NCBI GenBank assembly: GCA_963677485.1
Contig: OY781964.1
Span: forward strand, 3,584,001 to 3,648,000
DNA from: Armatimonadota bacterium
Lineage (GTDB): Bacteria; Armatimonadota; HRBIN16
Direction: 5' to 3'
Length of the DNA: 64,000 nt
Numbering within the stretch: the stretch's first letter is position 1; each line of letters begins with the position of its first letter. The notes beneath the pieces were generated by a model, which was not told where the DNA came from, ran no database searches, and saw only the letters and a list, made by a program, of their open reading frames with translations. The position numbers were made by a program, and so were the translations under genes. Below, one piece after another: positions 12,328-47,344 of this stretch.

Positions 12328-12412
12328 GGGAGATGCGTTGATGGCAGTGTTTGTCTGCCCTCAATGCCCTTGATGGCTATAATAAAACACCACACCTGCA
12401 GAAGGAGACATC

Positions 12413-14584
12413 ATGCCCAGGCCTGAGATAATACCCGCACCGACCGACTTGATGGAAGGGGCCCCCACAGGCTTCAGCCGGTTCAGCTTCCCGGGAGGGC
12501 AGCTTCAGGCGCAACTGCTGAACAGGTATCTGTGGGACTTCTTCAGGAACCGTGCGGTGAATGTAAAGGCCCCATACTATAAGGAGTACCTTCAGATTGC
12601 GGACCTCTGGCTGACGGAGGCTAACGAACCGCATACGGGTGTGCCCATCCAGCAGACCCACGCCACAGAACTGAGCGAGATATTTCAGGATGTGGACGGC
12701 TACCTGAGCAGTCACCAGGTGCTAAGCTGTGCTCATGACTTGGGTTGGCCTTTCCCTGTGTGGTGCTGGCCCGATGGATTTTCGGGTCATGCGACTGCCT
12801 GGAATTGGAGTGGTCCTTACGGCCTGCCTGCGCTGTTTCCTAACTGGAAACTGCCCGATTCGCCTTTCATTGGCGAACAGGCGCTGATGGGCTGGACCAC
12901 CCAGAACATGAAAAGCCGAGGTATCGTGGACAATCACTGGGAGCTGGAGGGCACAGGTTCATCGCCCAGCATCACCTCACCCGAAGGCTGGATCATTGAC
13001 GCCTTCTGCGCGCCGTTCACTCAGCTCAGAGGCGTATGCGCCACGGATGAAGCGGGCATGTCAGGGGTGGTGCTGCAATGGCAGCGCAAGGGTGACCGCG
13101 ATTTTAGTTCAGATCGTGAAGTGCCCATGGTGGTCGGCAAGGACAACCTGAACGCGCAGGGACTGAACTACATGACAGACGACCACCACTTGACCGCCAC
13201 ACTGCATCGACATCCATTATATAAGGGTAAAATCAAACGGCTTCGGGTGGTCTTCACAAAAACCGATGGCCGTGAGACTTATTGTCTGAACAACCTGTTC
13301 ACCGCATACGACACCCGGCACCCCATCAACTGTCCGATATTCATCATCTCTTGCTGGATGCAATACCAGTGGACCGGCGATGTGGATTTCCTGCGGATGA
13401 ACGCGCTTCGGATGCGCCGGGCGTTGGCCTGGCAGCAGAGCGAACTGAACACCCTGAAATACCAGCATGTGCGGAACACCATGACCGGGCACGACGGTCT
13501 GCCGGGCTTCAAAACGCTGCCTGGCGGCAAGAAGCAGATCGAGTTTGGGCATGGCATCGGGAATAACTACTTCGATGTCTGCCCGTTTGGGTATGACGAC
13601 GCCTACGCCACATCGCAGTATTACCGCAGTGTTCTGGTGATGGCTGAGATGGAGGAGGCCGTCGCTCAGCACCCAGAATGGCGTGTGGAACGAGAGAAAG
13701 CCTTCAATCCGCACCAACTGCGTGACCACGCCGCGAAGGTCAAAGTGGTGATGAACCGAAAGTTTTGGGATGACAAGAAAGGGCGGTTCATTGCTTGTAT
13801 CGACCAGAACGGAAGAAAATGGGACTTCGGCTATACCTTCTTGAACATCGAGGCCATCACCAACAGCATCGCCACACCAGAACATGCGAAACGCATCCTG
13901 GAGTGGCTGGACGGCAAGCATATCGTGCCAGGTGAAACCTCAACCGGCAGCGACATCTATGCCTGGCGGTTTGGTCCGCGCGTCTCCACAGTGCGCAACA
14001 CCGAGTGGTATGCTCAAGGATGGTTTGCGCCGGAGAACGTGCCCTGGGGCGGTCAGGTGCAGGACGGCGGTGGGGTGCTGGGATTCAGCTACTTCGACCT
14101 GCTGGCAAGGCTTCGGACCGCCGGAGCAGATAACGCCTGGAAGCGGCTACTGGAGATTCTGGACTGGGAGAAGGAGGTGCGTGACGCTGGCGGTTACCGT
14201 GACTACTACAAGAAGCTTGGTGTCACCCTCCAGGGCGGTGGTACCGAAGGAGGTATCGGCATCGACTTTGAGTTTTTGGAGAGCAGTATGATCCCTGCGA
14301 TCATCCCGCTGGGGTTCATGGGCTTGCAGCCGATGGGGGATGGGTTGGCGATCAACCCGCAGATGCCGTCCGCTCAGCCGGAGATGGCACTACACGGTCT
14401 GCTATTCCGTGGTTCGGAGCTGGATGTGCAGTGCAGCAACCAACAGATTATCTTCCGCTTGCGGAAGCATGGGAAGTTACCGGTGATTCTGCACCTCCCT
14501 GAAGGCTGGCGTGACGTCCACGGCCGCCAGGTGGGTTCCGCCCGGCTGTTCGCTGAGGGCGAGTTTGTGTTTACGAAGAAATAA
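12413..14584 (+). CDS. Putative (alpha/alpha)6-barrel glycoside hydrolase, paralog 2
   Basis: Colinear with paralog 1, with long identical stretches; own TATAAT and AAGGAG. Confidence 0.7.
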   Translation: MPRPEIIPAPTDLMEGAPTGFSRFSFPGGQLQAQLLNRYLWDFFRNRAVNVKAPYYKEYLQIADLWLTEANEPHTGVPIQQTHATELSEIFQDVDGYLSSHQVLSCAHDLGWPFPVWCWPDGFSGHATAWNWSGPYGLPALFPNWKLPDSPFIGEQALMGWTTQNMKSRGIVDNHWELEGTGSSPSITSPEGWIIDAFCAPFTQLRGVCATDEAGMSGVVLQWQRKGDRDFSSDREVPMVVGKDNLNAQGLNYMTDDHHLTATLHRHPLYKGKIKRLRVVFTKTDGRETYCLNNLFTAYDTRHPINCPIFIISCWMQYQWTGDVDFLRMNALRMRRALAWQQSELNTLKYQHVRNTMTGHDGLPGFKTLPGGKKQIEFGHGIGNNYFDVCPFGYDDAYATSQYYRSVLVMAEMEEAVAQHPEWRVEREKAFNPHQLRDHAAKVKVVMNRKFWDDKKGRFIACIDQNGRKWDFGYTFLNIEAITNSIATPEHAKRILEWLDGKHIVPGETSTGSDIYAWRFGPRVSTVRNTEWYAQGWFAPENVPWGGQVQDGGGVLGFSYFDLLARLRTAGADNAWKRLLEILDWEKEVRDAGGYRDYYKKLGVTLQGGGTEGGIGIDFEFLESSMIPAIIPLGFMGLQPMGDGLAINPQMPSAQPEMALHGLLFRGSELDVQCSNQQIIFRLRKHGKLPVILHLPEGWRDVHGRQVGSARLFAEGEFVFTKK

Positions 14585-14607
14585 TCTATATCACATGAGG
14601 TGCATCG

Positions 14608-16887
14608 TTGGTGTTTAGCATGTTCGTCTCAGTCATGGCCGTCATCGTGCTCGCTGGTTCGGTATCGGCAGATGGCTCGCAGCCGGCGGTGAGCCCAGCG
14701 ATTGGGACCATCCCCGCCGAGTTCACTAGCTTTGAGTTTGCGGGTCACCAGCGTGAATCTGCGTTTCTGAACGGCTATCTCTGGCGTCATTTCAACTCAC
14801 GGCTGGCCGGAGGCGGGAAGGCCGTGTTCAATAAAGAGTATCTCACACTTTCAGATTTGTGGGTGGCGGGTGCCGTCGATAAGGTCGCGGAGAAGCCGAT
14901 TCAGGAGCTGCTCCGCTCAGACATCACCGACATCCAGCTCGATGATGAAGGCTATGTGCATACCCATCAGCACTTCTCCCATGCCCACGAAAACGGCTGG
15001 CCATTTCCGCTTTGGACGCAAGCAGGCACCAACCCTGAACAACTGAATGGCAAAACAGCAGGATGGCACTTCACACCGCCGCCTGCCTGGTCGCTGCTGG
15101 CCATCGTCACCAACGGATGGGATATGGCACGCTACTTCGGCGAGACGGCGATCCAAGGATGGGAACTCAGCAATTTACGCTCGCTGGGGTTCAAAGAGAA
15201 AAAGTGGCAACTGGAAAGCACCGGCCCGTCGCCAACTCTCACAACACCCAATGGCTCGGTCATAGATGCTTTTCAGGCACCATTTCTGCAGCTCAGGTGG
15301 AACCGCATCGGTGAGCCATCCAACAATGCGATGCCTTATGTAGAGTGGCTGCGTGAAGGTGATACGGAGTTTGGTGCGGACCGGCGCGTCTACTTTGGCC
15401 TGAAGAGCACCGATCTGTCCGAAATCTGTGCGATTTGGCGTCCTGACAGCAACCGCACCAACACCGCCGAATCCGGCACCGAGCACTGCATGATCGAGAT
15501 GTTTCAACACCCTAAGTGGCGGGGCAAGATCAAGCGGATGCGGATCGTGCTGGCTCCTGGCGAGTCGCACATGCAGTTCGCGATCGACTCCTTCTTCACC
15601 GTCTATGACACACGTCAATCGATCAACAACCCCCTATATGTGTTGAGTTGCTGGAATACCTTCCGCTGGACAGGCGACCTGGAGTTCCTGCGGGCCAACA
15701 TCAACAAGATGCGTGCTGCCCTGCGTTACGATCAGACGGTGATGGGCGGGATGGAGCTTGGCCACATCCGCAACCCGTGGAATGGCCACGACGGTCTGCC
15801 ATCCTGGACGACCAACCCCGACGGCTCAAAGCTGTTCCATTCGGGAAATGGTCTGGCTGATAATTACTACGATCTGCTGCCATTTGGCTGGGATGACATG
15901 TATGCCACCTCGAACTATTATGCTGCGACCAAAGCGATGGCGGATTTGGAGCAGGCGGTCATCGACCACCCGGGCTGGAATGTGTCTTGCGGGGCTTCGG
16001 CGTTCGATCCCGCTGATCTTCTGAAGCACGCGAAGGCAGTAGCGGCTGTGGCGAACAAGCGGTTCTGGAACAAACAGACCGGCCGGTTTGTGGGGTGCAT
16101 TGATCAAAACGGGAATGCACATGACTACGGCTTTACCTATATGAATCTTGAGGCCGTCTGCCGTGACCTACCGACCCCTGACCACGCAAAGGAGATCATG
16201 AGCTGGATATCCGGCAAGCGCGTGGTGAAGGGCGATACATCGACTGGCGCCGACATCTACAAGTGGGAGTTCGGTCCGCGAATGACCACAAAACGCAACG
16301 TCGAGTGGTATGTCCAGGGCTGGTATGAGCCAGAAAGCGTGCCCTGGGGCGGACAGATACAAGATGGCGGCGCGGTGCTGGGCTTTGCATATTACGACAT
16401 CATGGCCAGGTTGAAGACATTGGGACCGGATGATGCCTGGAATCGGATGAGTGAGCTGCTGGCTTGGGAGGCGAAGACACTGCCGTTCAGCAGCTATCGT
16501 GATTACTATAAAAGCGTGCCCGATGCACCCATGCAGGGGAGTGGGGTGGCTGGCGGGCTTGGTATCGACGTGGAGTTCTTTGAGAGTAGTCTGGTGCCCT
16601 CAGCGGTGGTCTATGGATTTTTGGGACTGGAGCCGAAGTCGGCTGTGTTGTGCATCGAACCCAAGCTGCCCGCGAAATGCCCTGAGATGACGGTCAGGAA
16701 CCTTCTCTACCATGGGGTTCGGATGGACGTGAGGGCCGGTAAAGGCTTTGTGGAGTTCACACTCAAGGACCGGCCTGTTGAGGGCTTGCGCCTGGAGTTC
16801 ATGCACGACCTGGCTCTGAAGGGCACCACCACGCGCGGGCGGCGGTTTGAGCTGCTCGAGCCGGGGGTCTACCGGTTCGCGGGGTAG
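14608..16887 (+). CDS. Putative (alpha/alpha)6-barrel glycoside hydrolase, paralog 3 (signal peptide)
   Basis: Same motifs (NYYDLLPFG, QIQDGG, GLGIDVEFFES); hydrophobic N-terminus ending VSA. Confidence 0.7.
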   Translation: MVFSMFVSVMAVIVLAGSVSADGSQPAVSPAIGTIPAEFTSFEFAGHQRESAFLNGYLWRHFNSRLAGGGKAVFNKEYLTLSDLWVAGAVDKVAEKPIQELLRSDITDIQLDDEGYVHTHQHFSHAHENGWPFPLWTQAGTNPEQLNGKTAGWHFTPPPAWSLLAIVTNGWDMARYFGETAIQGWELSNLRSLGFKEKKWQLESTGPSPTLTTPNGSVIDAFQAPFLQLRWNRIGEPSNNAMPYVEWLREGDTEFGADRRVYFGLKSTDLSEICAIWRPDSNRTNTAESGTEHCMIEMFQHPKWRGKIKRMRIVLAPGESHMQFAIDSFFTVYDTRQSINNPLYVLSCWNTFRWTGDLEFLRANINKMRAALRYDQTVMGGMELGHIRNPWNGHDGLPSWTTNPDGSKLFHSGNGLADNYYDLLPFGWDDMYATSNYYAATKAMADLEQAVIDHPGWNVSCGASAFDPADLLKHAKAVAAVANKRFWNKQTGRFVGCIDQNGNAHDYGFTYMNLEAVCRDLPTPDHAKEIMSWISGKRVVKGDTSTGADIYKWEFGPRMTTKRNVEWYVQGWYEPESVPWGGQIQDGGAVLGFAYYDIMARLKTLGPDDAWNRMSELLAWEAKTLPFSSYRDYYKSVPDAPMQGSGVAGGLGIDVEFFESSLVPSAVVYGFLGLEPKSAVLCIEPKLPAKCPEMTVRNLLYHGVRMDVRAGKGFVEFTLKDRPVEGLRLEFMHDLALKGTTTRGRRFELLEPGVYRFAG

Positions 16888-35650: not shown

Positions 35651-36751
35651 CTATTTCTCCCAGGTAATCTTGACGGAGTGCAGCTCCGTATTCCAGTTGG
35701 CCCAGTTCACACCAGGGGTCGCGCTATAAGCGTATCCCAGGTATATCGGCCGTTTGAGGTCGATATGCCCTTGTGTGTCGGCACTGATGCCACAGTTGTG
35801 GAGATAGGGAATCATATTTTTGGTGATGCTGATCGGTTCGCTCCAGCTTAGTCCATCTTGCGAAGTCCTGACAGCGATGAAACTGTTCGGCCCCATCCGA
35901 CTGGCTGTGCTGACCGAAATGAAGCTTTTATATGCAGGGATATACTTCACATCGGCGCTGTCTTCATTGTCAAGCCTGTCCCATGCGGTGCCAATAAACT
36001 TTATCTTCGCTGGCCAGTTTTCATCGTCAGCAGGAGCGGTGGCAATCATCGTGCGGTTGGTACTCACCCTGGCATTTTGCGGCCCCTCAGCACTCATGAC
36101 GGTGTAGTAGATATACAGCGTCTTGCCCAGGCGCACAAAACTGGGTTCTCCAGCCCCCCATACAAGCAATGGCGTGCGGAATGGCACAATCGGCAGCGGC
36201 TTCAAACCACCCCAGCCGGATCCGTTCCACTTCTCAAAAGGGCCCGTGGGGCTGCTGCTGCGTGACACAAAAATCTCGGCACGGTTCCCTGCCAGATTAT
36301 CGGCGGCTGTCACACCCAGGTAGTAATATTTCCCTAGTTTGATGACACACGGATCGCAAACGCTGAATTTGTCACGCGAGAATGGGGTAGGCATCAGAAC
36401 GATGGTTTCATCGCTGGCCCACTTTCCTTCAGCGGTCAGCTTGCGGTGGCGGATCCAGTCCCACTGGTAATAGCTGTCACCTTCTACAGCATTCTCAGGA
36501 AAGGGATGGAACACCTTGAAGTCTGGTTTGTTTTCTACCGAACCACCCGGTGATGAAAAGTAAGCATCGATGCTGCCATCGGGATTGATCAACAGGGAGG
36601 GACCATATCGATAGGCGGCGCCGTCTTTTGTGGGATCGAAGAAGGTTCGGCCGGGTTCGGCATCAATCGTGAGGCGTTTGATGGGCTTCGCCATTCCACA
36701 CGCCGAGGAAACCATGATCAAGGCCACTAATGGCCATGCGGGATATTTCAC
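35651..36751 (-). CDS. Secreted five-bladed beta-propeller glycoside hydrolase-like protein A
   Basis: Signal peptide; YRYGPS, VCDP, PTGPFEKW, GAGEPS and SQDGLSW motifs; GTG start after AGGAG. Confidence 0.75.
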   Translation of the reverse strand: MKYPAWPLVALIMVSSACGMAKPIKRLTIDAEPGRTFFDPTKDGAAYRYGPSLLINPDGSIDAYFSSPGGSVENKPDFKVFHPFPENAVEGDSYYQWDWIRHRKLTAEGKWASDETIVLMPTPFSRDKFSVCDPCVIKLGKYYYLGVTAADNLAGNRAEIFVSRSSSPTGPFEKWNGSGWGGLKPLPIVPFRTPLLVWGAGEPSFVRLGKTLYIYYTVMSAEGPQNARVSTNRTMIATAPADDENWPAKIKFIGTAWDRLDNEDSADVKYIPAYKSFISVSTASRMGPNSFIAVRTSQDGLSWSEPISITKNMIPYLHNCGISADTQGHIDLKRPIYLGYAYSATPGVNWANWNTELHSVKITWEK

Positions 36752-36846
36752 TAACAGATTCTCCTGAGATTGATTAAGAAGCCGCAAACTGCGGCATGAG
36801 TAGCATCTTGTTCACTCGGTCCGCAAGATGCAGGATATGGGAATGG

Positions 36847-36871
36847 CCCGGTCTGCATGAGGCAGACCGGG
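36847..36871 (-). terminator. Hairpin after beta-propeller paralog B
   Basis: CCCGGTCTGC-N5-GCAGACCGGG. Confidence 0.65.
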
Positions 36872-36887
36872 TTTGGAGATGATGTGG

Positions 36888-37988
36888 TTATTTTTCCCAG
36901 GTGATCTTCACGGGGTGAAGCTCTGTATTCCAGCTGCCCCAGTTCACGCCGGGGGTCACGCTATAGGCGTATCCCAGGTAAATCGGCCGTTTGAGGTCGA
37001 TATGCCCCTGTGTGTCGGCACTGATACCACAGTTATGAAGGTAGGGGTGGAGGTTCTTCTTGATATGGATCGGTTCACTCCAGCTTAGCCCATCTTTAGA
37101 GGTGCGGACTGCAATATAACTATCCGGTCCCATCCGGCTGGCGGTGCTGACCGATATGAAGCTCTTGTAGGCTGGGATGTACTTCACGTCGGCACTATCT
37201 TCGCCTTCAAGCCTATCCCATGCGGTGCCGATAAACTTCATCTTCGCAGGCCAGTCTTCATCATCGGCCGGTGCGGTGGCGACCATCGTGCGGTTGATAC
37301 CCACTCTGGCATTCAACGGACCCTCAGCACTGGTGATGGTGTAATAGATGTATAGTGTGTTGCCCAAGCGCACAAAGCTGGGCTCTCCAGCTCCCCATAC
37401 CAGCAACGGTGTGCGGAATCGCACAATCGGCAGCGGCTTCACGCCACCCCAGCCAGACCCGTTCCATTTCTCAAAGGGACCGGTGGGACTGGTGCCGCGT
37501 GCCACGAATACCTCGTTACGGTTACCCGGTAGATTGTCGACGGCGGTTACACCAAGATAGTAGTAGGTACCCAGCTTGATCACACCCGGATCGCATACGC
37601 TGTATTTATCACGCGAAAAAGGGGTCGCCATCAGCACGATGGTTTCAGCGCTGGCCCACTTACCTTCAGCGGTCAGCTTACGGTGTCGGATCCAGTCCCA
37701 CTGGTGGTAGCTGTCACCCTCCACGGGAGTTTCAGGAAATGGGTGGAATACCTTGAAATCGGGCTTGTTTTCCACGGAGCCACCTGGCGAGGCGTAGTAT
37801 GAATCGATACTGCCGTCCGGGTTGATCAACAGTGTCGGGCCATACCGATACGCGGCACCGTCTTTTGTATGATCGAAGATAGTCCAGCCGGGTTCGGCAT
37901 CTATCGTAAGGCGCTTGATAGGCTTAGCCATTCCACACGCCGAAGAAACCATGATCAAGGCCACTAAGGGCCATGCACTGAATCTCAT
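36888..37988 (-). CDS. Secreted beta-propeller glycoside hydrolase-like protein B
   Basis: Gap-free colinear paralog of A; ATG 37988 after CAGGAG. Confidence 0.75.
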   Translation of the reverse strand: MRFSAWPLVALIMVSSACGMAKPIKRLTIDAEPGWTIFDHTKDGAAYRYGPTLLINPDGSIDSYYASPGGSVENKPDFKVFHPFPETPVEGDSYHQWDWIRHRKLTAEGKWASAETIVLMATPFSRDKYSVCDPGVIKLGTYYYLGVTAVDNLPGNRNEVFVARGTSPTGPFEKWNGSGWGGVKPLPIVRFRTPLLVWGAGEPSFVRLGNTLYIYYTITSAEGPLNARVGINRTMVATAPADDEDWPAKMKFIGTAWDRLEGEDSADVKYIPAYKSFISVSTASRMGPDSYIAVRTSKDGLSWSEPIHIKKNLHPYLHNCGISADTQGHIDLKRPIYLGYAYSVTPGVNWGSWNTELHPVKITWEK

Positions 37989-38195
37989 AGTTTGATACTC
38001 CTGGGACAGATTTGGAAGCGACACACTGTAGCCCGGTAATGAACCTGGCCACTTTCAATTTCGCCATTTGTTTCTCGATTCCTGCGTGACCGTTGGCACA
38101 AATACTCAGCCTTCGGCGACGGGTTCCATCAACCCACAAAAGCGGGCCTCGTCACCCGTGGCAATCGTGGTTGAGCAGCTAATCACACGCACCAA

Positions 38196-39361: not shown

Positions 39362-40459
39362 ATGCAATACCGTGAATACGGACGAACCGGAATCAAAGTG
39401 TCTGCATTAGGATTTGGTGCCATGCGGCTGCCATTCCAAGATGTGGATCTCTCTGTAAGCATCTTACAACATGCAATGGACAAAGGGGTAAACTTCATCG
39501 ATACCGCCTATGTCTACGGTGAAGATGGGGCCAGCGAGAAGGTAGTGGGGCAGGCTCTGAAGGGCCGTCGAGACAAAATCATCTTGGCGACCAAGAACCC
39601 GCTATTCGATGAGACTGCGGAAGGCTGACGCACTCGTCTGGAAACAAGCCTTAAGCGGTTGGATACAGACTATATCGACTTTTACAAAGTGATTCATGGC
39701 ATCAACTACAGTAACTACGAAGGTGTGTATCTTGACACCTTACTGCCAGAGATCATGAAAGCCAAAGAAGAGGGTAAAATCCGTCACATTACCTTCAGCA
39801 GCCATGACAGCCCGGAGAACATCATCAAGCTGATTGATACAGGTGCCTTCGAGGGCATGCTGGTGCAGTATAACCTTCTGGACCGCCGCAACGAACCCGC
39901 CCTCGCTCAGGCACTTGCCAAGGGGATGGGCGTGGAGATCATGGGGCCGGTGGGCGGAGGGCGCCTGGGCATGGCCAGCAACCGGCTGCGCGACCTGATC
40001 CCGGGCATCTCGGGCACGCCGGAATTGGCACTGCGATTTGTTTTGAGCAACCCTGCGGTGGTCACCGCCTTCAGCGGCATGAACACCATGCAGCAGGTGG
40101 ACGAAAACTGCACCACGGCCAGCCGTGAAGAGCCTTTGAGCGCCCAAGAGCGCACGCAGATCGAAGAAGCGTTGGAAGAGAACCGCAGCCTGAGCGAGCT
40201 GTATTGCACCGGATGCAACTACTGCCTGCCTTGTCCGCAGGGAGTGGCTATCCCGGAGATATTCGCTGCGATGAACCATCACCGTGTGTGGGGGCTCACC
40301 GATTTGGCCAAACACATGTATTCTCACTTTGGTGTGAACAACAAAGATGGCAAACTCAACGCCGAGGGTTGCGTGGAGTGCGGTGAATGTGAAGCCAAGT
40401 GCCCGCAGCACATCGAGATCATCCGGCAGTTGAAGGAAACACACGCTGCAATAGGCTAG
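39362..40459 (+). pseudogene. Aldo/keto reductase with C-terminal Fe-S domain, in-frame TGA at 39626-39628
   Basis: ORFs 39362..39628 and 39659..40459 share one frame: ETAEG*RTRLETSLKRLDTDYIDFY. CTGCNYCLPCP and CVECGECEAKCP are intact. Confidence 0.85.
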
Positions 40460-40465
40460 AAGAAG

Positions 40466-40493
40466 GTAGGGGCGGTTCGCGAACCGCCCTTAC
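40466..40493 (+). repeat. GTAG-type REP
   Basis: GTAG-GGGCGGTTCGCGAACCGCCC; shows compensatory changes relative to the copy at 16884. Confidence 0.85.
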
Positions 40494-40521
40494 CGTGCCT
40501 GCCCTTCTTTTTGCGGGTGCA

Positions 40522-40826
40522 TTTAACCACGAATGCACACGAATGAACACCAATGGGACATCTCACGCGAAGACGCGAAGGGGTCAGATTGGCAGTGTCC
40601 TACTCGTCTTGCTCATCCTAATCGCCCTATTAGGGGCTCTTTTAACCGCGGATGAACACGAATGAACGCGAATGGGAAGTCTCACGCGAAGACGCGAAGG
40701 CGCGAAGGGATGGCTTGGCAGTGTCCTACTCGTCTTACTCATCCTAATCGTTCTGCTGGGGCTCATTTTGACCGCGAATGCACACGAATGGACGCTAATG
40801 GGACATCTTACGCGAAGACGCGACGT
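40522..40826 (+). repeat. Tandem composite repeat (units start at 40522, 40641 and 40767)
   Basis: Each unit is a 10-bp-period ACGAATGAAC module, an 8-bp-period ACGCGAAG module and a 9-bp-period GTCCTACTC module; the third unit is truncated. Confidence 0.9.
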
Positions 40827-40948
40827 ATAGGGGCGTACTGCTTATTCCCGTGCTCTCCCCATCCTCCCATCCGCGTAATCCGTGGTTCAGACAAATTCCC
40901 TGGGCACATTCCACAAATATCCCACTATTTTACCAAAAAAGCACGAAG

Positions 40949-40988
40949 TATATATGAATATCCCTATATAGTGATATAATTATATTCA
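40949..40988 (+). promoter_or_regulatory. Extended -10 promoter and putative ArsR-family operator
   Basis: TGaTATAAT at 40972-40980 inside an AT-rich dyad TGAATAT...ATATTCA. Confidence 0.55.
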
Positions 40989-41002
40989 GGTGCTCAAAAC
41001 AC

Positions 41003-41317
41003 ATGAAAAAAACAACCAAATTGATACCGATGGAAGTGCTGAACCAGGTGGCCCCTGTGATACGAAACACCGCACATCCACTGCGTTTGCGTATTCTGGA
41101 CTACCTCCAGTGCGCAGGGGAGCCACAGAACGTCAACCAGATCACTGAGGCAACCGATGTTGCTCAGGCATTCGTCAGTCAACAACTGCGCATACTCAAA
41201 GACCAGGGCGTGCTCACCTGCCAACGTCACGGCTTGTTCATGATGTATGAAATATCCAACCCGGCTCTGCTGCACCTTCTGGAGTGCATCCGGACACATG
41301 GTAAAGACTGTAAATAG
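41003..41317 (+). CDS. ArsR/SmtB-family regulator
   Basis: AHPLRLRIL, VSQQLRILKDQG wHTH; four Cys. Confidence 0.9.
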   Translation: MKKTTKLIPMEVLNQVAPVIRNTAHPLRLRILDYLQCAGEPQNVNQITEATDVAQAFVSQQLRILKDQGVLTCQRHGLFMMYEISNPALLHLLECIRTHGKDCK

Positions 41318-41364
41318 ACCAGATGGGCATATCTGCTCATGACAAACACAAGGAGACATCTCTA

Positions 41365-41616
41365 ATGGCCGCAAATCTTGAATCCATCACCCCAGATAAG
41401 TCTGTTGACGCCCGTGCTATGGCATGCCCCGGTCCGCTGCTTGAAGCCAAAAAGGCTATTAGCACCGTCGCTGTGGGGCAGACACTTGAAATCATGTCCG
41501 GTGACAAGGGAAGCCAGGAAGACATCCCCGCATGGTGCAAAAAGACCGGACACGAGTACCTCGGATTTGTAGAGCGCGACGGATACGACAGCCTCTACGT
41601 CATCCGAAAAAAGTAA
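41365..41616 (+). CDS. tusA: TusA-family sulfur carrier
   Basis: VDARAMACPGP motif, DIPAWC; AAGGAG RBS. Confidence 0.92.
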   Translation: MAANLESITPDKSVDARAMACPGPLLEAKKAISTVAVGQTLEIMSGDKGSQEDIPAWCKKTGHEYLGFVERDGYDSLYVIRKK

Positions 41617-41634
41617 GCCGCATTGGGAGCAGCC

Positions 41635-42036
41635 ATGGAACCGCAGGTTAACTCCAAAATACTGATCATCACCACTATGATCAGTTCCTATCCTGGCGCA
41701 AACACAACAGGTCAAGCCCGGTTGCAATACTCGCCGGGCACCTCCATCATTCGTGTGCCCGACCCAGTGATGTTCCCCGAGGAGTTCTATATGCGCGCGT
41801 TTGAGAAGGGCATCGAGGGCATCATCATCATGTCTAGTGGCTCGGACTGCCCGTATGAAGGAGCCTATAAACGGCTTTCAGACCGGGTTGGGCGCCTCTA
41901 CAAACGCATGAAAGAGGCTGGGATTGACCAGTCCAGGCTGAAACTGACCACAGTCTGCACGGTATGTAAGGCCGCTTTTCTGAAAGAGATCGCCGAAATG
42001 CAGGCCAATATTAACAAACAACGGACGGCATCCTAA
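41635..42036 (+). CDS. MvhD/FlpD-like iron-sulfur subunit (variant Cys pattern)
   Basis: SYPGA...G.ARLQY...IIRV, AFEKG.EG, DCPY, GIDQSRL; extra CTVC. Confidence 0.8.
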   Translation: MEPQVNSKILIITTMISSYPGANTTGQARLQYSPGTSIIRVPDPVMFPEEFYMRAFEKGIEGIIIMSSGSDCPYEGAYKRLSDRVGRLYKRMKEAGIDQSRLKLTTVCTVCKAAFLKEIAEMQANINKQRTAS

Positions 42037-43350
42037 GTGGAAAATCCTATAAGCACACTCACCGAAAAACTAGTCGCAGATGCATTGGTTGTCGGCGCAG
42101 GGATTGCTGGACTGCAATCCGCACTGGACCTGGCGGACCAGGGCAAGCACGTGCTGCTGGTGGAACCCCAACCCAGCATCGGCGGACGCATGATCAACCT
42201 TAGTAAAGTGTTTCCTACGCTGGACTGCGCAAGCTGCATCACCACCCCCCGCATGGCATCCGTGTCGCACCATCCGAATATTACTCTTTTCACCTACACC
42301 GACGTCGAGCAGATCGAGAAGAACGGCAGCCGCTTCCATGCCACGATCGTGAAGAAACCCCGTTACATCAACGAGGAAGACTGCATCGCTTGCAAACAGT
42401 GCGAAGAGGCCTGTCCCACTTTCCTGCCGGATGAGTATGACCACGCGCTTGGAGCCAAGAAAGTCATCTCTATTCCATTTACTAATGCCATTCCGCAACT
42501 ACCGGTGCTGGACATGTCTGAATGCGTGCTCTGCGGGGCCTGCGCGAAGGTCTGCCCAAAAGACTGCATAGACTTCCTGCAGCAGCCAAAGCGAATTGAA
42601 GTGGATGCCGGTGTGGTGGTGATGGCGACCGGCTACAATCTGACGGAGATGAGTGCGAAGAAGCAATATGGCGGGGAGAAATACCCCAATGTCATTTCGC
42701 CCATCCAAATGGAACGCATCCTGGCACCACATGGTCCTTTCGGAGGCGTGATGCGACCTTCTGACGGCAAGATTCCTTCTTCAATCGCCTATGTGCAATG
42801 CGCGGGCTCACGTGATAAAAGTCTGGGTGTGCCGTATTGCTCACGCGTCTGCTGTATGTATGCCATCAAGCAGGCGATGCTGCTTTCCGGTTCGCTGCCC
42901 ATCGCCGACATCACCATCTATTACATGGATATCCGTGCGTTTGGGAAGGGCTACGAACAGTTCTACCAAAACGCCAAGGCCATGGGGATCGAGTTCGTTA
43001 AGGCCAAAGTCGGACGTATCACTGAAGGCGAAAACCATGATTCTGTGCTGCGCATAGAGCGTCAGGAGGATGGCTCCAAACCGGAGGAAGTCACGCACGA
43101 CCTGGTGGTGCTCTCTCTGGGAATGGTGCCAGCCTGGCAGCCTTCGCCGGGCGGTATGATCCCGCTGGAAGCCAGTGCTGATGGCTTTATACACAACCCA
43201 AAAGCGAAGATTAACCCCACGCTGACCAGCATGCCGGGAGTGTTTGCCGCCGGTGCCGCGACGGGACCTAAGGACATTGTCGACGCGATTGTGGACGCCA
43301 GTGCCGCCGCGGCAGAAGCAGCGAACTACCTGATGAGTATAGAGGCATAG
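42037..43350 (+). CDS. HdrA/Qmo-like flavoprotein 1 (FAD + inserted 2x[4Fe-4S] ferredoxin)
   Basis: VVGAGIAG, FPTLDCASC, two CxxCxxCxxxCP motifs, QCAGSRD...YCSRVCC, GPKDI. Confidence 0.9.
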   Translation: MENPISTLTEKLVADALVVGAGIAGLQSALDLADQGKHVLLVEPQPSIGGRMINLSKVFPTLDCASCITTPRMASVSHHPNITLFTYTDVEQIEKNGSRFHATIVKKPRYINEEDCIACKQCEEACPTFLPDEYDHALGAKKVISIPFTNAIPQLPVLDMSECVLCGACAKVCPKDCIDFLQQPKRIEVDAGVVVMATGYNLTEMSAKKQYGGEKYPNVISPIQMERILAPHGPFGGVMRPSDGKIPSSIAYVQCAGSRDKSLGVPYCSRVCCMYAIKQAMLLSGSLPIADITIYYMDIRAFGKGYEQFYQNAKAMGIEFVKAKVGRITEGENHDSVLRIERQEDGSKPEEVTHDLVVLSLGMVPAWQPSPGGMIPLEASADGFIHNPKAKINPTLTSMPGVFAAGAATGPKDIVDAIVDASAAAAEAANYLMSIEA

Positions 43351-43354
43351 TGAT

Positions 43355-45145
43355 ATGACACAATCTGAACAAACAACACCAGGCACACCGCCCTTCGATG
43401 ATATCCGCGTTGGCGTGTATGTATGCCACTGCGGCGGCAACATCTCCGATGTCGTGGACACCAAAGCGGTGGCAGAGGCGGTCGGACAAGACCCCAACGT
43501 GAAGATCGCACGCGACTATGTTTTCATGTGCTCCGACCCGGGCCAGCAGCTCATCATTGACGACATCATCGCGAACAACATCAACCGCGTGGTGGTCGCT
43601 GCCTGCTCACCGTCGCTTCATGAGCTCACGTTCCGTAATGCACTCATACGTGCCGGTCTGAATCCCTACTTTTATGAGCACGTCAACATCCGAGAACAGG
43701 TCAGCTGGGTTCATAAGGGTGACCATGGCGGGGCGACCGCCAAAGCCATCCGCCTCACTGCTGCCGGTGTCGCGAAGATTGTGCGGCAGGACGCCTTGGA
43801 GCCGATAGAAGTTGATGCCAACGGCCATGTGCTAGTGATAGGGGCTGGCGTCGCAGGACTACGCGCTGCGCTCACCCTGGCACAACGCGGTTTGGGTGTG
43901 ACCGTGGTGGAGAAAAATACCGCCGCAGGCGGACGAATGGCCGAGTTGGACACGGTATATCCCACCGCGGAGAAGGCCTCCGAGCTGCTGGCTGAGCTCA
44001 CCGACGCGGTGACTCACAACCCCAAGATTGAACTGCTGACGAGTACCGAGGTCACCGCCATTGACGGCTTTGTGGGTAACTTCAAAATCGCACTCAGCTC
44101 TCAGACGGAGATACTGGCCGGTTCGATTATCATCGCCACAGGCTTTGACCACTACCAGCCCTATGATGGTGAATTTGGCTACCACACCTCCCCCGAGGTG
44201 GTGACGCTGCCAGAGTTCAACCAAATTCTTCGCCAACACACCTCCAGTGGCAGCCAACTCAAGCATAATGGCCGCGCAATTCATGACATCGCCTTCATCC
44301 ATTGCGTGGGAAGCCGCCAAGTGGAGGGTGTTCATCAGCCACAACCTGACGGTAAAGTCAATGACTATTGCTCACGAGTGTGCTGCACATCAACGCTGCA
44401 TACCATCGAGCAGACGCTAGACCGCTACCCTGATGTCAACATTTACGATCTCTACAAAGACATCCGCACCTACGGACGAGGCCATGAAGAATACTACGAA
44501 AATGCCTCCAAGAAGGGCGTGCTCTTCTTCAGATATAACGACGACGGTCTTCCGCAGTTTGAACCGGGACTCAACGGGAAACAGGCTAGCTTGAAGGTCA
44601 CCGACTGGCTGACCTGGGGAGAGGAGGTCACGATCCCCGTGGATATGGTCGTTCTTGCCACAGGTATGATGCCCAGAGACATTTCAAGCATCGTGTCCAT
44701 GTTGAAACTGCCGATTGGTGCTGACCGCTTCCTGCAGGAGGTGCATCCCAAGCTTCGGCCTGTGGAGCTGGCCAACAACGGCGTGATGATCGCGGGCACA
44801 TGCCAGGGGCCCATGGACATCAACGAGGCCTGTGTGGCAGCGGGAGCCGCCGCCAGCAAGGCGTCCATCCTGCTCTCTAAACCGATCATCGAGATTGACC
44901 CCTTCGTAGCGCGTGTCGATATTGATAAGTGCGACGGCTGCCAGCTTTGCCTGGCGGAGTGTGAGTACCGAGGTGCCCTGACCATGGTGGGTGATAAGGC
45001 TTCGGTTAACCCCGCCATCTGCGTGGGTTGCGGAGCGTGTGTGGCGGTCTGCCCGCCTCGCGCTATCAACATCGCTGGATGGACACTGGAGCAGTTTGAT
45101 GCTATGATCGACGCCATCACCACCGAGGAGGTGCCTCATGCCTGA
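43355..45145 (+). CDS. HdrA/Qmo-like flavoprotein 2 (N-terminal Fe-S domain + FAD + C-terminal ferredoxin)
   Basis: GVYVCHCGGNI, FMCS, AACSP, NIREQ, IGAGVAG, HCVGSR...YCSRVCC and two C-terminal CxxCxxCxxxC motifs. Confidence 0.9.
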   Translation: MTQSEQTTPGTPPFDDIRVGVYVCHCGGNISDVVDTKAVAEAVGQDPNVKIARDYVFMCSDPGQQLIIDDIIANNINRVVVAACSPSLHELTFRNALIRAGLNPYFYEHVNIREQVSWVHKGDHGGATAKAIRLTAAGVAKIVRQDALEPIEVDANGHVLVIGAGVAGLRAALTLAQRGLGVTVVEKNTAAGGRMAELDTVYPTAEKASELLAELTDAVTHNPKIELLTSTEVTAIDGFVGNFKIALSSQTEILAGSIIIATGFDHYQPYDGEFGYHTSPEVVTLPEFNQILRQHTSSGSQLKHNGRAIHDIAFIHCVGSRQVEGVHQPQPDGKVNDYCSRVCCTSTLHTIEQTLDRYPDVNIYDLYKDIRTYGRGHEEYYENASKKGVLFFRYNDDGLPQFEPGLNGKQASLKVTDWLTWGEEVTIPVDMVVLATGMMPRDISSIVSMLKLPIGADRFLQEVHPKLRPVELANNGVMIAGTCQGPMDINEACVAAGAAASKASILLSKPIIEIDPFVARVDIDKCDGCQLCLAECEYRGALTMVGDKASVNPAICVGCGACVAVCPPRAINIAGWTLEQFDAMIDAITTEEVPHA

Positions 45146-45422
45146 CAACACACCCAAAGCCTATCTGCAGCAGCTTAAGCAGCTCAGGGCTGCGCGTGGT
45201 CCTTTGCCGAAAGAGATGGTAGAGCGGGGCAAAAGCCAGATTACCATGCAAAAGGCCATTCTAGCGGCGATCGAGACGGAAGCAAAAACCGTGCCCGAGA
45301 TCGCGGAGATCACCGGTATAGCCACCCAGGACGTGTTCTGGTGGGTCACCGCGATGCGCAAATATAACCGCGTTCAAGACGGTAAAAAGCGCGGCGAATA
45401 CGCCACGTACCTGAAGAAGTGA
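45138..45422 (+). CDS. Small winged-helix-like protein
   Basis: KTVPEIAEITG HTH-like segment; GAGGAGG RBS; overlaps the upstream stop. Confidence 0.7.
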   Translation: MPDNTPKAYLQQLKQLRAARGPLPKEMVERGKSQITMQKAILAAIETEAKTVPEIAEITGIATQDVFWWVTAMRKYNRVQDGKKRGEYATYLKK

Positions 45423-45432
45423 GAGGCCAGGC

Positions 45433-46563
45433 ATGAGTGTTACCATCAACCCAAAACTAATCAAAGATATCAAGAAGTATGGTGCGTTTGATATCAGTGC
45501 CTGCTTCAATTGCGGCAACTGCACAGCGGTCTGCCCATTATCTGACGAGCATGGGAATTTCCCCCGCAAGCTGATACGGCTGGGACAGATCGGCAGCAGA
45601 GACCGGATCCTGTCCAGTCCTGAGCCCTGGCTCTGTTACTACTGCGGCGAATGCTCCGATACCTGCCCGCGTCAGGCCGAGCCCGGCGAGTACATGGCCG
45701 CTCTGCGCCGTTACACCATCGCTGCCAGTGAACCAACCGGGATCGCAAAGCTGATGTACCAAAGCGGCATCATGGCGATACTCGTCACGCTGCTTGTCGG
45801 CATCGTGTTCGGGGCCTTCATGCTGTCGGTCAAAATGGGGGAGAACCCGGCGCACTGGCTGTTTTCTCCCATCTCCTACGAGTTCATACACGTGTTTGGT
45901 ATCATCGTGTCCATCGTCACTTTACTCACCATACTTGGTGGGGTTTCCAATGTGTGGCGGCGCATCATGAACGGTGCTGAGATGCCGAAGACTAACGGCC
46001 CCCAGTGGGTCGCCGCCATTAAAAAGACCATCGTAGAAATCGCCACAATGGCCCGCCATCGCCAGACCACAGAAGAGTCGGTTCCTGGCCCCTGGTATAA
46101 ACAGTCCGCCTGGGTTCATATGGGTATCATGTATGGCTTCATAGGCCTACTGGTGGCCACCACCCTGGACTTCATCTTCCTGGTGCTGCTGCCGTTGCAC
46201 CTTACGGTGTTTTGGCCGGCACGTATCATCGGGACGGTGGCTGGTCTGGCCATGATGTGGGGCGTGAGTGCTGCCATCGGTCGACGCATGAGCAGGGCCG
46301 AGAAGAACGTCGAACACTCACGGCTGCCAGACTGGTGGGTTCTCGTCTTCCTGTTTGTGCTGGGAGTCACGGGCTTCTGGCTCGAACTCGCTGTCACATT
46401 CAAAGCTGCGGGGACCATCAATGACGCAGTGATGCTGATCCATGCCGCCATGGCGATGGAACTCGTGCTGCTGATGGCGTTCACCAAAATGGCGCACGTC
46501 ATCTATCGCCCTATCGCACTGTTTGCCTATTTCCTGAAGAAATCTACGGAGGAACCAGCATGA
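45433..46563 (+). CDS. QmoC-like protein (HdrC-type 2x[4Fe-4S] + membrane cytochrome b-like domain)
   Basis: CFNCGNCTAVCP, WLCYYCGECSDTCP, about 6 TM helices, TKMAHVIYRP. Confidence 0.85.
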   Translation: MSVTINPKLIKDIKKYGAFDISACFNCGNCTAVCPLSDEHGNFPRKLIRLGQIGSRDRILSSPEPWLCYYCGECSDTCPRQAEPGEYMAALRRYTIAASEPTGIAKLMYQSGIMAILVTLLVGIVFGAFMLSVKMGENPAHWLFSPISYEFIHVFGIIVSIVTLLTILGGVSNVWRRIMNGAEMPKTNGPQWVAAIKKTIVEIATMARHRQTTEESVPGPWYKQSAWVHMGIMYGFIGLLVATTLDFIFLVLLPLHLTVFWPARIIGTVAGLAMMWGVSAAIGRRMSRAEKNVEHSRLPDWWVLVFLFVLGVTGFWLELAVTFKAAGTINDAVMLIHAAMAMELVLLMAFTKMAHVIYRPIALFAYFLKKSTEEPA

Positions 46564-47132
46564 GCACCGACAACGCGCTATCTATAGAACAACTTTCTGA
46601 GCAAGTGTCCAGCCTGCAATCTCAGATCGATGATATCAAGGCCATGTCCCTGCCCGAAGACAAACTATCAATGGTAGTCTTCAGCGGTGATCTCGATAAG
46701 CAGCTTGCCGCCTTCATCATCGCCACCGGAGCCAGTGCCATGTTTGAGGAGGTGGTGATGTTCTTCACCTTCTGGGGAACTGCCGCACTGCGCGACCCAA
46801 ATAAGAACAAACAGGGCAAGGACCTCATCTCACAAATGTTCGGCTGGATGCTGCCCAAAGGCGCGTCAAAGCTGAAGCTTTCGCAGATGCATATGGGCGG
46901 AATGGGCACAAATATGATGAAGGGGCTGATGAAGAAGAAGAACGTCATGTCCCTGGAGCAGCTCATCAAGACGGCGGGCGAAGCAGGTGTTCGGATCGTC
47001 GTTTGTCAGATGAGCATGGATCTGATGGGCATGTCGATCGACGAGATGGTGGACTATCCCAACTTGAAGGTCGGTGGCGTGGCCGCCTTCCTGGGCGACG
47101 CAGGTACCAGCAAGACCACGCTGTTCATTTAG
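46560..47132 (+). CDS. DsrE2-type (DsrE/DsrF/DrsH-like) sulfurtransferase
   Basis: FSGDLDK, MFFTFWG and VCQMSMDLMG motifs. Confidence 0.9.
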   Translation: MSTDNALSIEQLSEQVSSLQSQIDDIKAMSLPEDKLSMVVFSGDLDKQLAAFIIATGASAMFEEVVMFFTFWGTAALRDPNKNKQGKDLISQMFGWMLPKGASKLKLSQMHMGGMGTNMMKGLMKKKNVMSLEQLIKTAGEAGVRIVVCQMSMDLMGMSIDEMVDYPNLKVGGVAAFLGDAGTSKTTLFI

Positions 47133-47143
47133 GTCCGGGTGAC

Positions 47144-47344
47144 GTAGGGGCATCCCCCTGTGGCTGCCCCTTAGTGTGATGTATCGGACGCATCAGACGA
47201 ATCGGACTAATAAGCTGCCCCTCATCCCCGAGCAGTCGATGACCTACAAATCCAGATTGGGCTCGTATCGACCATGTACCGAAATATTTATGTCGCGGAA
47301 TCGGTGACCTACTGGCCATGCGATATTTGCGGGTAATTGACTGA
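47144..47344 (+). repeat. Repeat cluster: GTAG REP, 9-bp module and 59-bp repeat
   Basis: GTAGGGGCATCCCCCTGTGGCTGCCCC (47144-47170), three ATCRGAC units (about 47181-47210) and a copy of 2169-2227. Confidence 0.8.

Follow-up and report, generated by a model that had tools for sequence, protein, structure and literature searches.

We describe an operon of eight co-oriented genes on the plus strand of an Armatimonadota genome (positions 41003–47132 of the window, the whole 64,000-nucleotide stretch of contig OY781964.1 that was analysed), which encodes an ArsR-family regulator, the sulfur carrier TusA, an MvhD-like subunit, two HdrA-like proteins (HdrA1 and HdrA2), a small winged-helix-like protein (wHTH), a QmoC-like membrane subunit and the sulfur carrier DsrE2. 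By the sequence features tested, it is a real, widespread and uncharacterised variant of the Hdr/Qmo systems and is not a canonical Qmo, HdrABC or sHdr system. Its most telling feature was overlooked when the operon was first singled out: the MvhD-like subunit, hereafter MvhD*, is rebuilt and carries a CxxC motif. The original prediction, of a distinct quinone-linked module acting on persulfide bound to TusA and DsrE2, is partly supported, aprA and sat being absent from the host genome, the HdrA pair being separate from QmoA/QmoB, and TusA and DsrE being linked to the operon.

A rebuilt MvhD subunit with a CxxC motif

MvhD* (41623–42036; likely start at the ATG at 41635, with a purine-rich ribosome site before it) is assigned to the FlpD/MvhD family by its match to PF02662, its alignment to solved MvhD and a fold model (pLDDT 89.6) that resembles 5ODC_D with a TM-score of 0.86. 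It keeps one of the four canonical [2Fe-2S] cysteines (C76) and carries a new pair, C112-x-x-C115 (codons at 41956–41967), at a predicted strand-to-helix junction where canonical MvhD reads S-A-A/S-E. Of 94 MvhD-like proteins gathered with QmoC or wHTH as anchor, 92 contain this CxxC; a metagenome set was kept out of the count because its search pattern held part of the motif. Among the 92, canonical ligands are retained in varying number (three in 38, two in 30 with two patterns, one in 22 and none in 2), and none of these proteins keeps all four.

The two MvhD proteins that lack the CxxC have the full set of four ligands; in both loci MvhG and MvhA come next, and TusA is missing. At locus L035, the CxxC-less MvhD stands with HdrA1 and HdrA2 from within the operon's own clades, together with wHTH and QmoC, and locus L225 joins the same chassis to a canonical-type MvhD with no TusA, DsrE or QmoC. 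No MvhA was found at MvhD* loci in any of the three locus sets. Since the CxxC-less exceptions come with MvhAG and without TusA, the set of TusA, DsrE and MvhD* appears to fill the hydrogenase slot, and this pattern of gene content makes it likely that the three jointly replace the hydrogenase arm. Prediction of an MvhD*-TusA complex returned a score of 0.01 (mark 0.32), and the tool gives no answer on this pairing.

A search for gene fusions scored 7998 candidates. The TusA-MvhD*-HdrA fusions P0001, P0005, P0007, P0009 and P0013 were rejected as frameshift artefacts, their tails looking out-of-frame. Clean fusions of a response-regulator receiver to an MvhD* homologue were found in P0002–P0004 (275–277 aa, three clusters, 15 member sequences), with the CxxC in P0002.

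Distribution and linkage to TusA and DsrE

TusA (41323–41616; PF01206, 78 bits; likely start at the ATG at 41365, again preceded by a purine-rich ribosome site) has its active-site Cys35 kept in 55 of 55 aligned rows, and the 190-aa DsrE2-type carrier (46560–47132; DrsE_2, PF13686, 173 bits; below the cut-off of NF047629) has Cys149 kept in 33 of 33. The expected conservation of their linkage in homologous clusters proved near-invariant: in 60 well-flanked loci, TusA is present in 60 and DsrE in 59 (DsrE2 in 38, short DsrE in 31), along with wHTH in 54 and ArsR in 27, four of the 60 loci labelled QmoC being HdrC-plus-CCG variants. In metagenome loci anchored on MvhD, TusA was found in 77 of 80, the three misses having less than 60 bp of upstream DNA, and in all 47 metagenome loci that extend 1.2 kb or more upstream it is at most 1 kb from MvhD*.

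The QmoC-like protein has at least 485 relatives in GTDB, some of them of other types, from which 80 loci were kept. The order tusA-mvhD-hdrA1-hdrA2-wHTH-qmoC occurs in 13 bacterial phyla as well as Heimdallarchaeota and Archaeoglobales, going by record titles and tree labels. The wHTH marker was detected in 41 Thermodesulfobacteriota and 5 Planctomycetota genomes, 401 of each phylum having been sampled, and Ancylomarina longa (L056) is a cultured carrier. In 46 carrier genomes, mostly incomplete metagenome-assembled genomes (MAGs), aprA scored above cut-off in 7, compared with 4 of 4 Qmo controls, and dsrA in 8; six of the seven aprA-positive genomes hold a separate canonical qmoC. Near the operon, the 60 loci include FadL-like channels (10), rhodaneses (5) and thioredoxins (3).

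Several loci carry additional genes. A FadL-like outer-membrane channel lies directly 3' of dsrE2 in 13 loci (L032–L052, L092, L100–L102), some with a CGGC-domain protein. A second TusA-like protein is encoded near the operon at L146:58-330 and in 25 other loci, its representative apparently lacking the active-site cysteine. Lone QmoC-like genes without the HdrA pair occur at L027:8016-15866 and L079:8001-9119, and in L027 the next genes encode a short DsrE, a rhodanese and an apparent persulfide-dioxygenase-type protein.

The HdrA pair, QmoC and alternative outlets

HdrA1 (437 aa, 42037–43350) comprises a flavin adenine dinucleotide (FAD) core with an inserted 2×[4Fe-4S] ferredoxin domain and a core [4Fe-4S] motif, and has no N- or C-terminal Fe-S domains. 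HdrA2 (596 aa, 43355–45145) is built the other way round, with an N-terminal Fe-S domain and a C-terminal 2×[4Fe-4S] domain flanking an FAD core that has no inserted ferredoxin. Glu226 and Lys278 of HdrA1 align to E356 and K409 of 5ODC_A, and the pair is lost in HdrA2. HdrA1 also keeps, and HdrA2 has lost, the cysteine that we take to be a ligand of the partner's N-terminal cluster. The displayed homologues of HdrA1 retain this pair as well as the inserted ferredoxin. A pair of the E356/K409 type has been proposed to mark bifurcating HdrA (PMC12054007).

In a midpoint-rooted tree of 55 rows, a hand-picked subset, QmoA plus QmoB, HdrA1 and HdrA2 form three separate branches, each with 100% SH-aLRT support, so that the HdrA pair falls outside the QmoA/QmoB clade and, for this part, the claim that the proteins lie outside the canonical Qmo clades held. 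HdrA1 joins HdrA and HdrA2 joins QmoAB with only 88% support each. HdrA1 scores ~390 bits to methanogen HdrA versus 129 bits to 6TJR, presumably the sHdrA structure.

The QmoC-like subunit (376 aa, 45433–46563) has an HdrC-like 2×[4Fe-4S] domain and about six transmembrane helices, and matches NF038018 with 211.8 bits, below the cut-off of 300. Its His153, 229, 337 and 355 align where the QmoC linked to adenosine 5'-phosphosulfate (APS) reductase mostly has His; in 75 QmoC-like rows, the eight cysteines, His229 and His355 are kept in all 75, His337 in 64 and His153 in 52. QmoC discriminates less well than the HdrA pair. A branch of its own is formed by four canonical QmoC that adjoin aprA, but the operon's QmoC clade also takes in five QmoC of qmoAB clusters, and in four of these aprA stands at the same locus. 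QmoC alone therefore does not set the operon apart from APS-reductase-linked systems, and its monophyly was discarded as a diagnostic feature. The tree was also flagged for a long-branch join at its root. Clusters of the aprBA-qmoAB type with a QmoC of the operon's clade are L055, L067, L078 and L080, and in L078 a CCG protein also sits between QmoB and QmoC. In L069 and L074, Bacteroidota encode mvhDGA-hdrA-qmoC, a hydrogenase-to-quinone Hdr module with other HdrA types.

The high-potential end of the chassis varies. Of 40 wHTH-anchored regions, 36 have MvhD*; a membrane QmoC serves as outlet in 14 regions and HdrC plus a single-CCG protein in 24. A count made with a helix-count filter, which missed some membrane QmoC, gave 21 CCG outlets, and the figure of 24 is used instead. 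The idea of an HdrB-less module fits this operon but is not universal, since many homologous operons swap QmoC for HdrC and a CCG protein. TusA is found beside MvhD* in all 36 of these regions whichever outlet is used, which indicates that TusA and DsrE track MvhD* and the HdrA pair rather than the membrane end. HdrA1 exceeds 650 aa in 13 loci, and the one that was scanned (L009) has an inserted Fer4_20 and a pyridine-nucleotide (NAD(P)H) oxidoreductase module.

Gene arrangement and the small proteins of the operon

The tight coupling of the eight genes, with abutting or overlapping junctions, was borne out by the listing of open reading frames (ORFs) in the window, where all eight are present, by the family matches and by gaps of 5, 6, 0, 4, –8, 10 and –4 nt between the longest ORFs. 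The GC content of the operon is 55.4%, that of the genome 54.4%. A short-read contig, its run possibly the source sample, is identical to positions 40680–47315 with zero differences, and the operon is thus no assembly artefact. The accessory ArsR/SmtB-family regulator (104 aa, 41003–41317; HTH_5 match) has Asp33 where 22 of 41 aligned operon-linked ArsRs have Cys, and keeps Cys103 (25 of 41); it scores 28.7 bits against the BigR model (cut-off 155). BigR/SqrR persulfide sensors have two conserved cysteines; of the residues at these positions in the window's ArsR, the first is Asp and the second Cys. The wHTH protein (94 aa, 45138–45422), our marker for the chassis, has no Pfam or NCBIfam match, and in the ESM Atlas it neighbours clusters that are either unnamed or weakly HTH-like; we predict a role as structural subunit or chaperone, not as regulator.

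Host genome

The host genome is a single contig of 5.22 Mb, 97.4% complete, in which no aprA, sat or dsrA was found, so the lack of an AprAB partner, first noted for the window, extends to the genome. No MvhAG was found in it either, the NiFe hydrogenase being of the HoxEFUYH type. HdrB is a different matter: the operon has no CCG protein, as predicted, but the only one in the genome, a two-CCG HdrB, lies ~2.27 Mb away in a separate hdrC-hdrB-hdrA-mvhD-flx-like cluster, of a type that is frequent in relatives without MvhD*. Menaquinone genes of the futalosine type (MqnA/D, an MqnP-like prenyltransferase) and complex I are present, with cytochrome bd and a COX1-family ORF as quinol sinks. Besides HoxEFUYH, the host has a trimeric FeFe hydrogenase and a Hyf-like membrane complex; Rnf was not found. 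Its sole molybdopterin-family match adjoins nuoH, and hence no polysulfide reductase was found, while its one GcvH-family protein is an ordinary GcvH distant from the operon. That the host degrades sugars is loosely supported by a weak, sub-cut-off GH43 match nearby, a ribulokinase and the trimeric FeFe hydrogenase.

The nearest named carrier of the operon is an Armatimonadota MAG (61–82% identity). Among 41 related genomes, the host and a single congener alone have the MvhD* type, and this patchy spread suggests lateral gain or frequent loss. A second, stand-alone TusA is encoded in the host at 4049508–4049819. The COX1-family ORF (814 codons, 150378–151733) has no NCBIfam match at 1e-25 and is possibly a quinol-dependent nitric oxide reductase.

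Discussion

An uncharacterised 'type II' QmoABC of unassigned function occurs in genomes without Apr (Neukirchen et al. 2023, PMC10504309). Its QmoAB are described as resembling typical HdrA more than bacterial QmoAB, and Vulcanisaeta moutnovskia and Ammonifex degensii are among its carriers. Compared by description, the available sections of that paper do not mention a TusA/DsrE linkage, a small wHTH or a CxxC-type MvhD, and its supplementary spreadsheet has no 'TusA' or 'type II' entry. We found no description of the operon or of a CxxC-type MvhD in the literature searched, the coverage of which was limited, and earlier sources may describe part of it; the accessible portions of PMC13490349, PMC12142623 and PMC8477390 are about other clusters. 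Like canonical QmoABC, the operon pairs an HdrA-like protein that lacks the terminal domains with another that has them, and adds a membrane subunit of Fe-S/haem type. However, QmoA and QmoB form their own clade with 100% support and partner with AprAB, which is missing here, and canonical QmoB has a fused MvhD domain with four cysteines (5 of 5 examined) and no CxxC, whereas the MvhD of the operon is encoded by a separate upstream gene. With the methanogen MvhAGD-HdrABC and ElpABC-HdrABC complexes (5ODC, 8RVU; PMC12350162) it shares the HdrA core with E356/K409 (HdrA1 only here), the inserted ferredoxin, the terminal Fe-S domains, an MvhD-fold subunit and an HdrC-like domain, but the HdrA homodimer is split into two unequal paralogues, the [2Fe-2S] ligand set of MvhD is lost, there is no hydrogenase, and QmoC takes the place of the two-CCG HdrB. 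TusA and DsrE-type transferases also always stand alongside sHdr-LbpA (PMC11094781), but the operon lacks sHdrB and a lipoate-binding protein and has a membrane QmoC. HdrABC-FlxABCD, which interacts with DsrC in Desulfovibrio (PMC10504309), likewise pairs an Hdr-type complex with a protein-bound sulfur carrier; unlike the operon, it is soluble, with HdrB and a canonical MvhD, and the host has such a cluster separately.

We propose, at what we judge to be a little under an even chance, that electrons from menaquinol and ferredoxin are confurcated via the CxxC of MvhD* to reduce the sulfane sulfur of TusA to sulfide. The working unit would be an HdrA1-HdrA2-wHTH-QmoC complex with the CxxC MvhD and the carriers TusA and DsrE2, and on the simplest reading HdrA1 and HdrA2 would form an asymmetric, half-sited dimer in which HdrA2 gives the arm and HdrA1 the bifurcating flavin. 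In solved complexes, MvhD together with HdrA's N- and C-terminal domains makes up a mobile arm that moves towards the FAD of the partner HdrA' (PMC12350162). By analogy with methanogen Hdr structures, the terminal domains of HdrA2 may bring MvhD* to the HdrA1 flavin, the high-potential branch may connect to menaquinone via the Fe-S clusters and haems of QmoC, and the low-potential branch to ferredoxin via the inserted ferredoxin domain of HdrA1. Menaquinol and reduced ferredoxin would then both deliver electrons to the HdrA1 FAD, where the arm-borne MvhD* disulfide would be reduced; thiol chemistry suggests that DsrE2 could load TusA and that the MvhD* dithiol could free H2S from the TusA persulfide. 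The purpose may be an electron sink combined with detoxification of sulfane sulfur. That the host makes menaquinone and that one HdrA of the operon keeps the bifurcation-linked Glu/Lys pair agree with a quinone-linked, possibly bifurcating role. The scheme also draws on the gain of the CxxC with loss of the [2Fe-2S] ligand set in MvhD*, on the swap to MvhAG where that motif is missing, on the constancy of TusA beside MvhD*, on the lack of a polysulfide reductase among the host genes found, and on the FadL-like channels, rhodaneses and thioredoxins near the operon. Potentials of –420 mV for ferredoxin and –70 mV for menaquinone have been given (PMC5861303). Their mean is –245 mV. The sulfur/sulfide couple lies near this value, at about –260 mV, and the enzyme may operate near equilibrium and possibly reversibly. 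That the operon represents a new bifurcating class, with the MvhD thiol pair, in place of an Fe-S cluster or hydride donor, as a mid-potential terminal between protein-bound sulfane sulfur, menaquinone and ferredoxin, we regard as rather doubtful.

Several points weigh against this confurcation scheme. Each of its steps is inferred. Conservation of Glu/Lys is no proof of bifurcation (PMC5861303), and MvhD stands ~25 Å from the FAD in the solved states, so direct dithiol-flavin exchange needs further movement (PMC12350162). The window MvhD* has three cysteines across the ligand and CxxC sites, with Asp residues nearby, and 68 of the 92 MvhD* carry four or five, enough for a remodelled Fe-S cluster. 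The CCG protein that replaces the membrane domain in 24 of 40 regions could itself be the sulfur-reactive site. The hydrogenase-type swap amounts to three loci, only two of them in the operon's chassis, no rhodanese was found in the host genome, and the window ArsR is without the first cysteine of the pair that is frequent in operon-linked ArsRs. An oxidative direction is also possible, given the quinol sinks of the host.

That direction, the same wiring run in reverse from sulfide to TusA-bound sulfane sulfur with electrons bifurcating to menaquinone and ferredoxin, we consider improbable. Its appeal is that MvhD is the electron entry point in Hdr complexes (PMC12350162), that MvhD* stands in for the hydrogenase donor arm, that cytochrome bd and the COX1-family enzyme could take up quinol electrons, and that sulfur oxidation by sHdr and rDsr systems makes use of TusA and DsrE (PMC11094781). 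However, the host showed no pathway for downstream sulfur oxidation (dsrA, aprA and sat were not found, and the GcvH is ordinary and distant), and dsrA exceeds its cut-off in few carrier genomes (8 of 46). Somewhat less improbable, though still unlikely, is that the CxxC and the variable ligands of MvhD* hold a remodelled Fe-S cluster, relay or catalytic, with TusA and DsrE carrying other sulfur species such as thiosulfonate or supplying sulfur for assembly or repair of the complex. The cysteine counts just given and the unchanged MvhD fold suit this explanation, as does the transfer of thiosulfonate by archaeal DsrE/TusA (PMC4175335, PMC11094781), but the extra ligands come in four lineage-dependent patterns, with 2 proteins having the CxxC only and 22 having three cysteines, and a maturation role sits poorly with the hydrogenase-type chassis, which bears an equal Fe-S load and has no TusA or DsrE.

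A simple, non-bifurcating persulfide or disulfide reductase, linked to quinone (or to NAD(P)H in the long-HdrA1 variants) and serving detoxification only, would account for the 13 long-HdrA1 loci with the NAD(P)H-type module of L009, and ArsR control with presence in 2 of 41 related genomes would suit a stress module. We hold it to be distinctly improbable: neither the Glu/Lys pair nor the inserted ferredoxin is lost in the displayed HdrA1 homologues, and menaquinol alone, at –70 mV, would be a poor reductant for sulfane sulfur. The complex might instead borrow the distant HdrB as its catalytic subunit, there being one two-CCG HdrB in the genome and CCG-type variants of the operon; but that HdrB already belongs with an HdrC, an HdrA, a canonical MvhD and Flx-like partners, and its cluster type is frequent in relatives that have no MvhD*, which leaves this arrangement very improbable. 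Least credible is an ordinary QmoABC serving APS reductase, an explanation that is largely refuted. The QmoA/QmoB-like division of domains and the aprA-adjacent QmoC within the same clade speak for it, but the 97.4%-complete host genome has no aprA or sat, only 7 of 46 carriers have aprA, 6 of these with a separate canonical qmoC, and the HdrA pair lies outside the QmoA/QmoB clade.

Many anaerobic heterotrophs process elemental sulfur or polysulfide without a recognised enzyme. The operon is a concrete candidate for such sulfur use in anaerobes, with named residues in TusA (C35), DsrE2 (C149), MvhD* (C112/C115) and HdrA1 (E226/K278). If the operon does represent a new bifurcating class, fermentative anaerobes of many phyla would gain energy-conserving sulfur respiration without polysulfide reductase or Dsr, and the operon would exemplify a plug-and-play chassis on which either a sulfur carrier or a hydrogenase can serve as input, quinone or a CCG protein as the high-potential end, and ferredoxin or an NAD(P)H module as the low-potential end. 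As a caution, these hdrA and qmoC genes are unsafe as markers of sulfate reduction or methanogenesis.

Flanking sequences and other observations

Directly 5' of arsR, an AT-rich palindromic stretch (40949–40988; inverted repeats I1, I3 and I18), near-identical in the congener L001, may be a promoter or operator, and a promoter scan upstream of the operon found no sigma-70 consensus site. A short GC-rich inverted repeat after the dsrE2 stop (47146–47171) may mark the transcript end. Most of the operon is also covered, at ~85–94% identity, by contigs of a bioreactor RNA run; these represent a relative and were not used as evidence. The flanks are unrelated to the operon: upstream lies a split aldo-keto reductase, and downstream, on the opposite strand, a two-component pair. 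The former, an aldo-keto reductase/ferredoxin gene (39362–40459), reads as two same-frame ORFs (88 and 266 aa) with an in-frame stop between them. Between it and the operon, three tandem copies of a ~109-nt repeat (40470–40823) have 67 BLAST matches genome-wide and are probably a dispersed element like the repetitive extragenic palindromic (REP) sequences. Farther upstream lie two tandem 378-aa paralogues (35651–38024), one with the weak, below-cut-off GH43 match, and three consecutive ORFs of 721, 723 and 759 aa (10162–16887) with no Pfam match.

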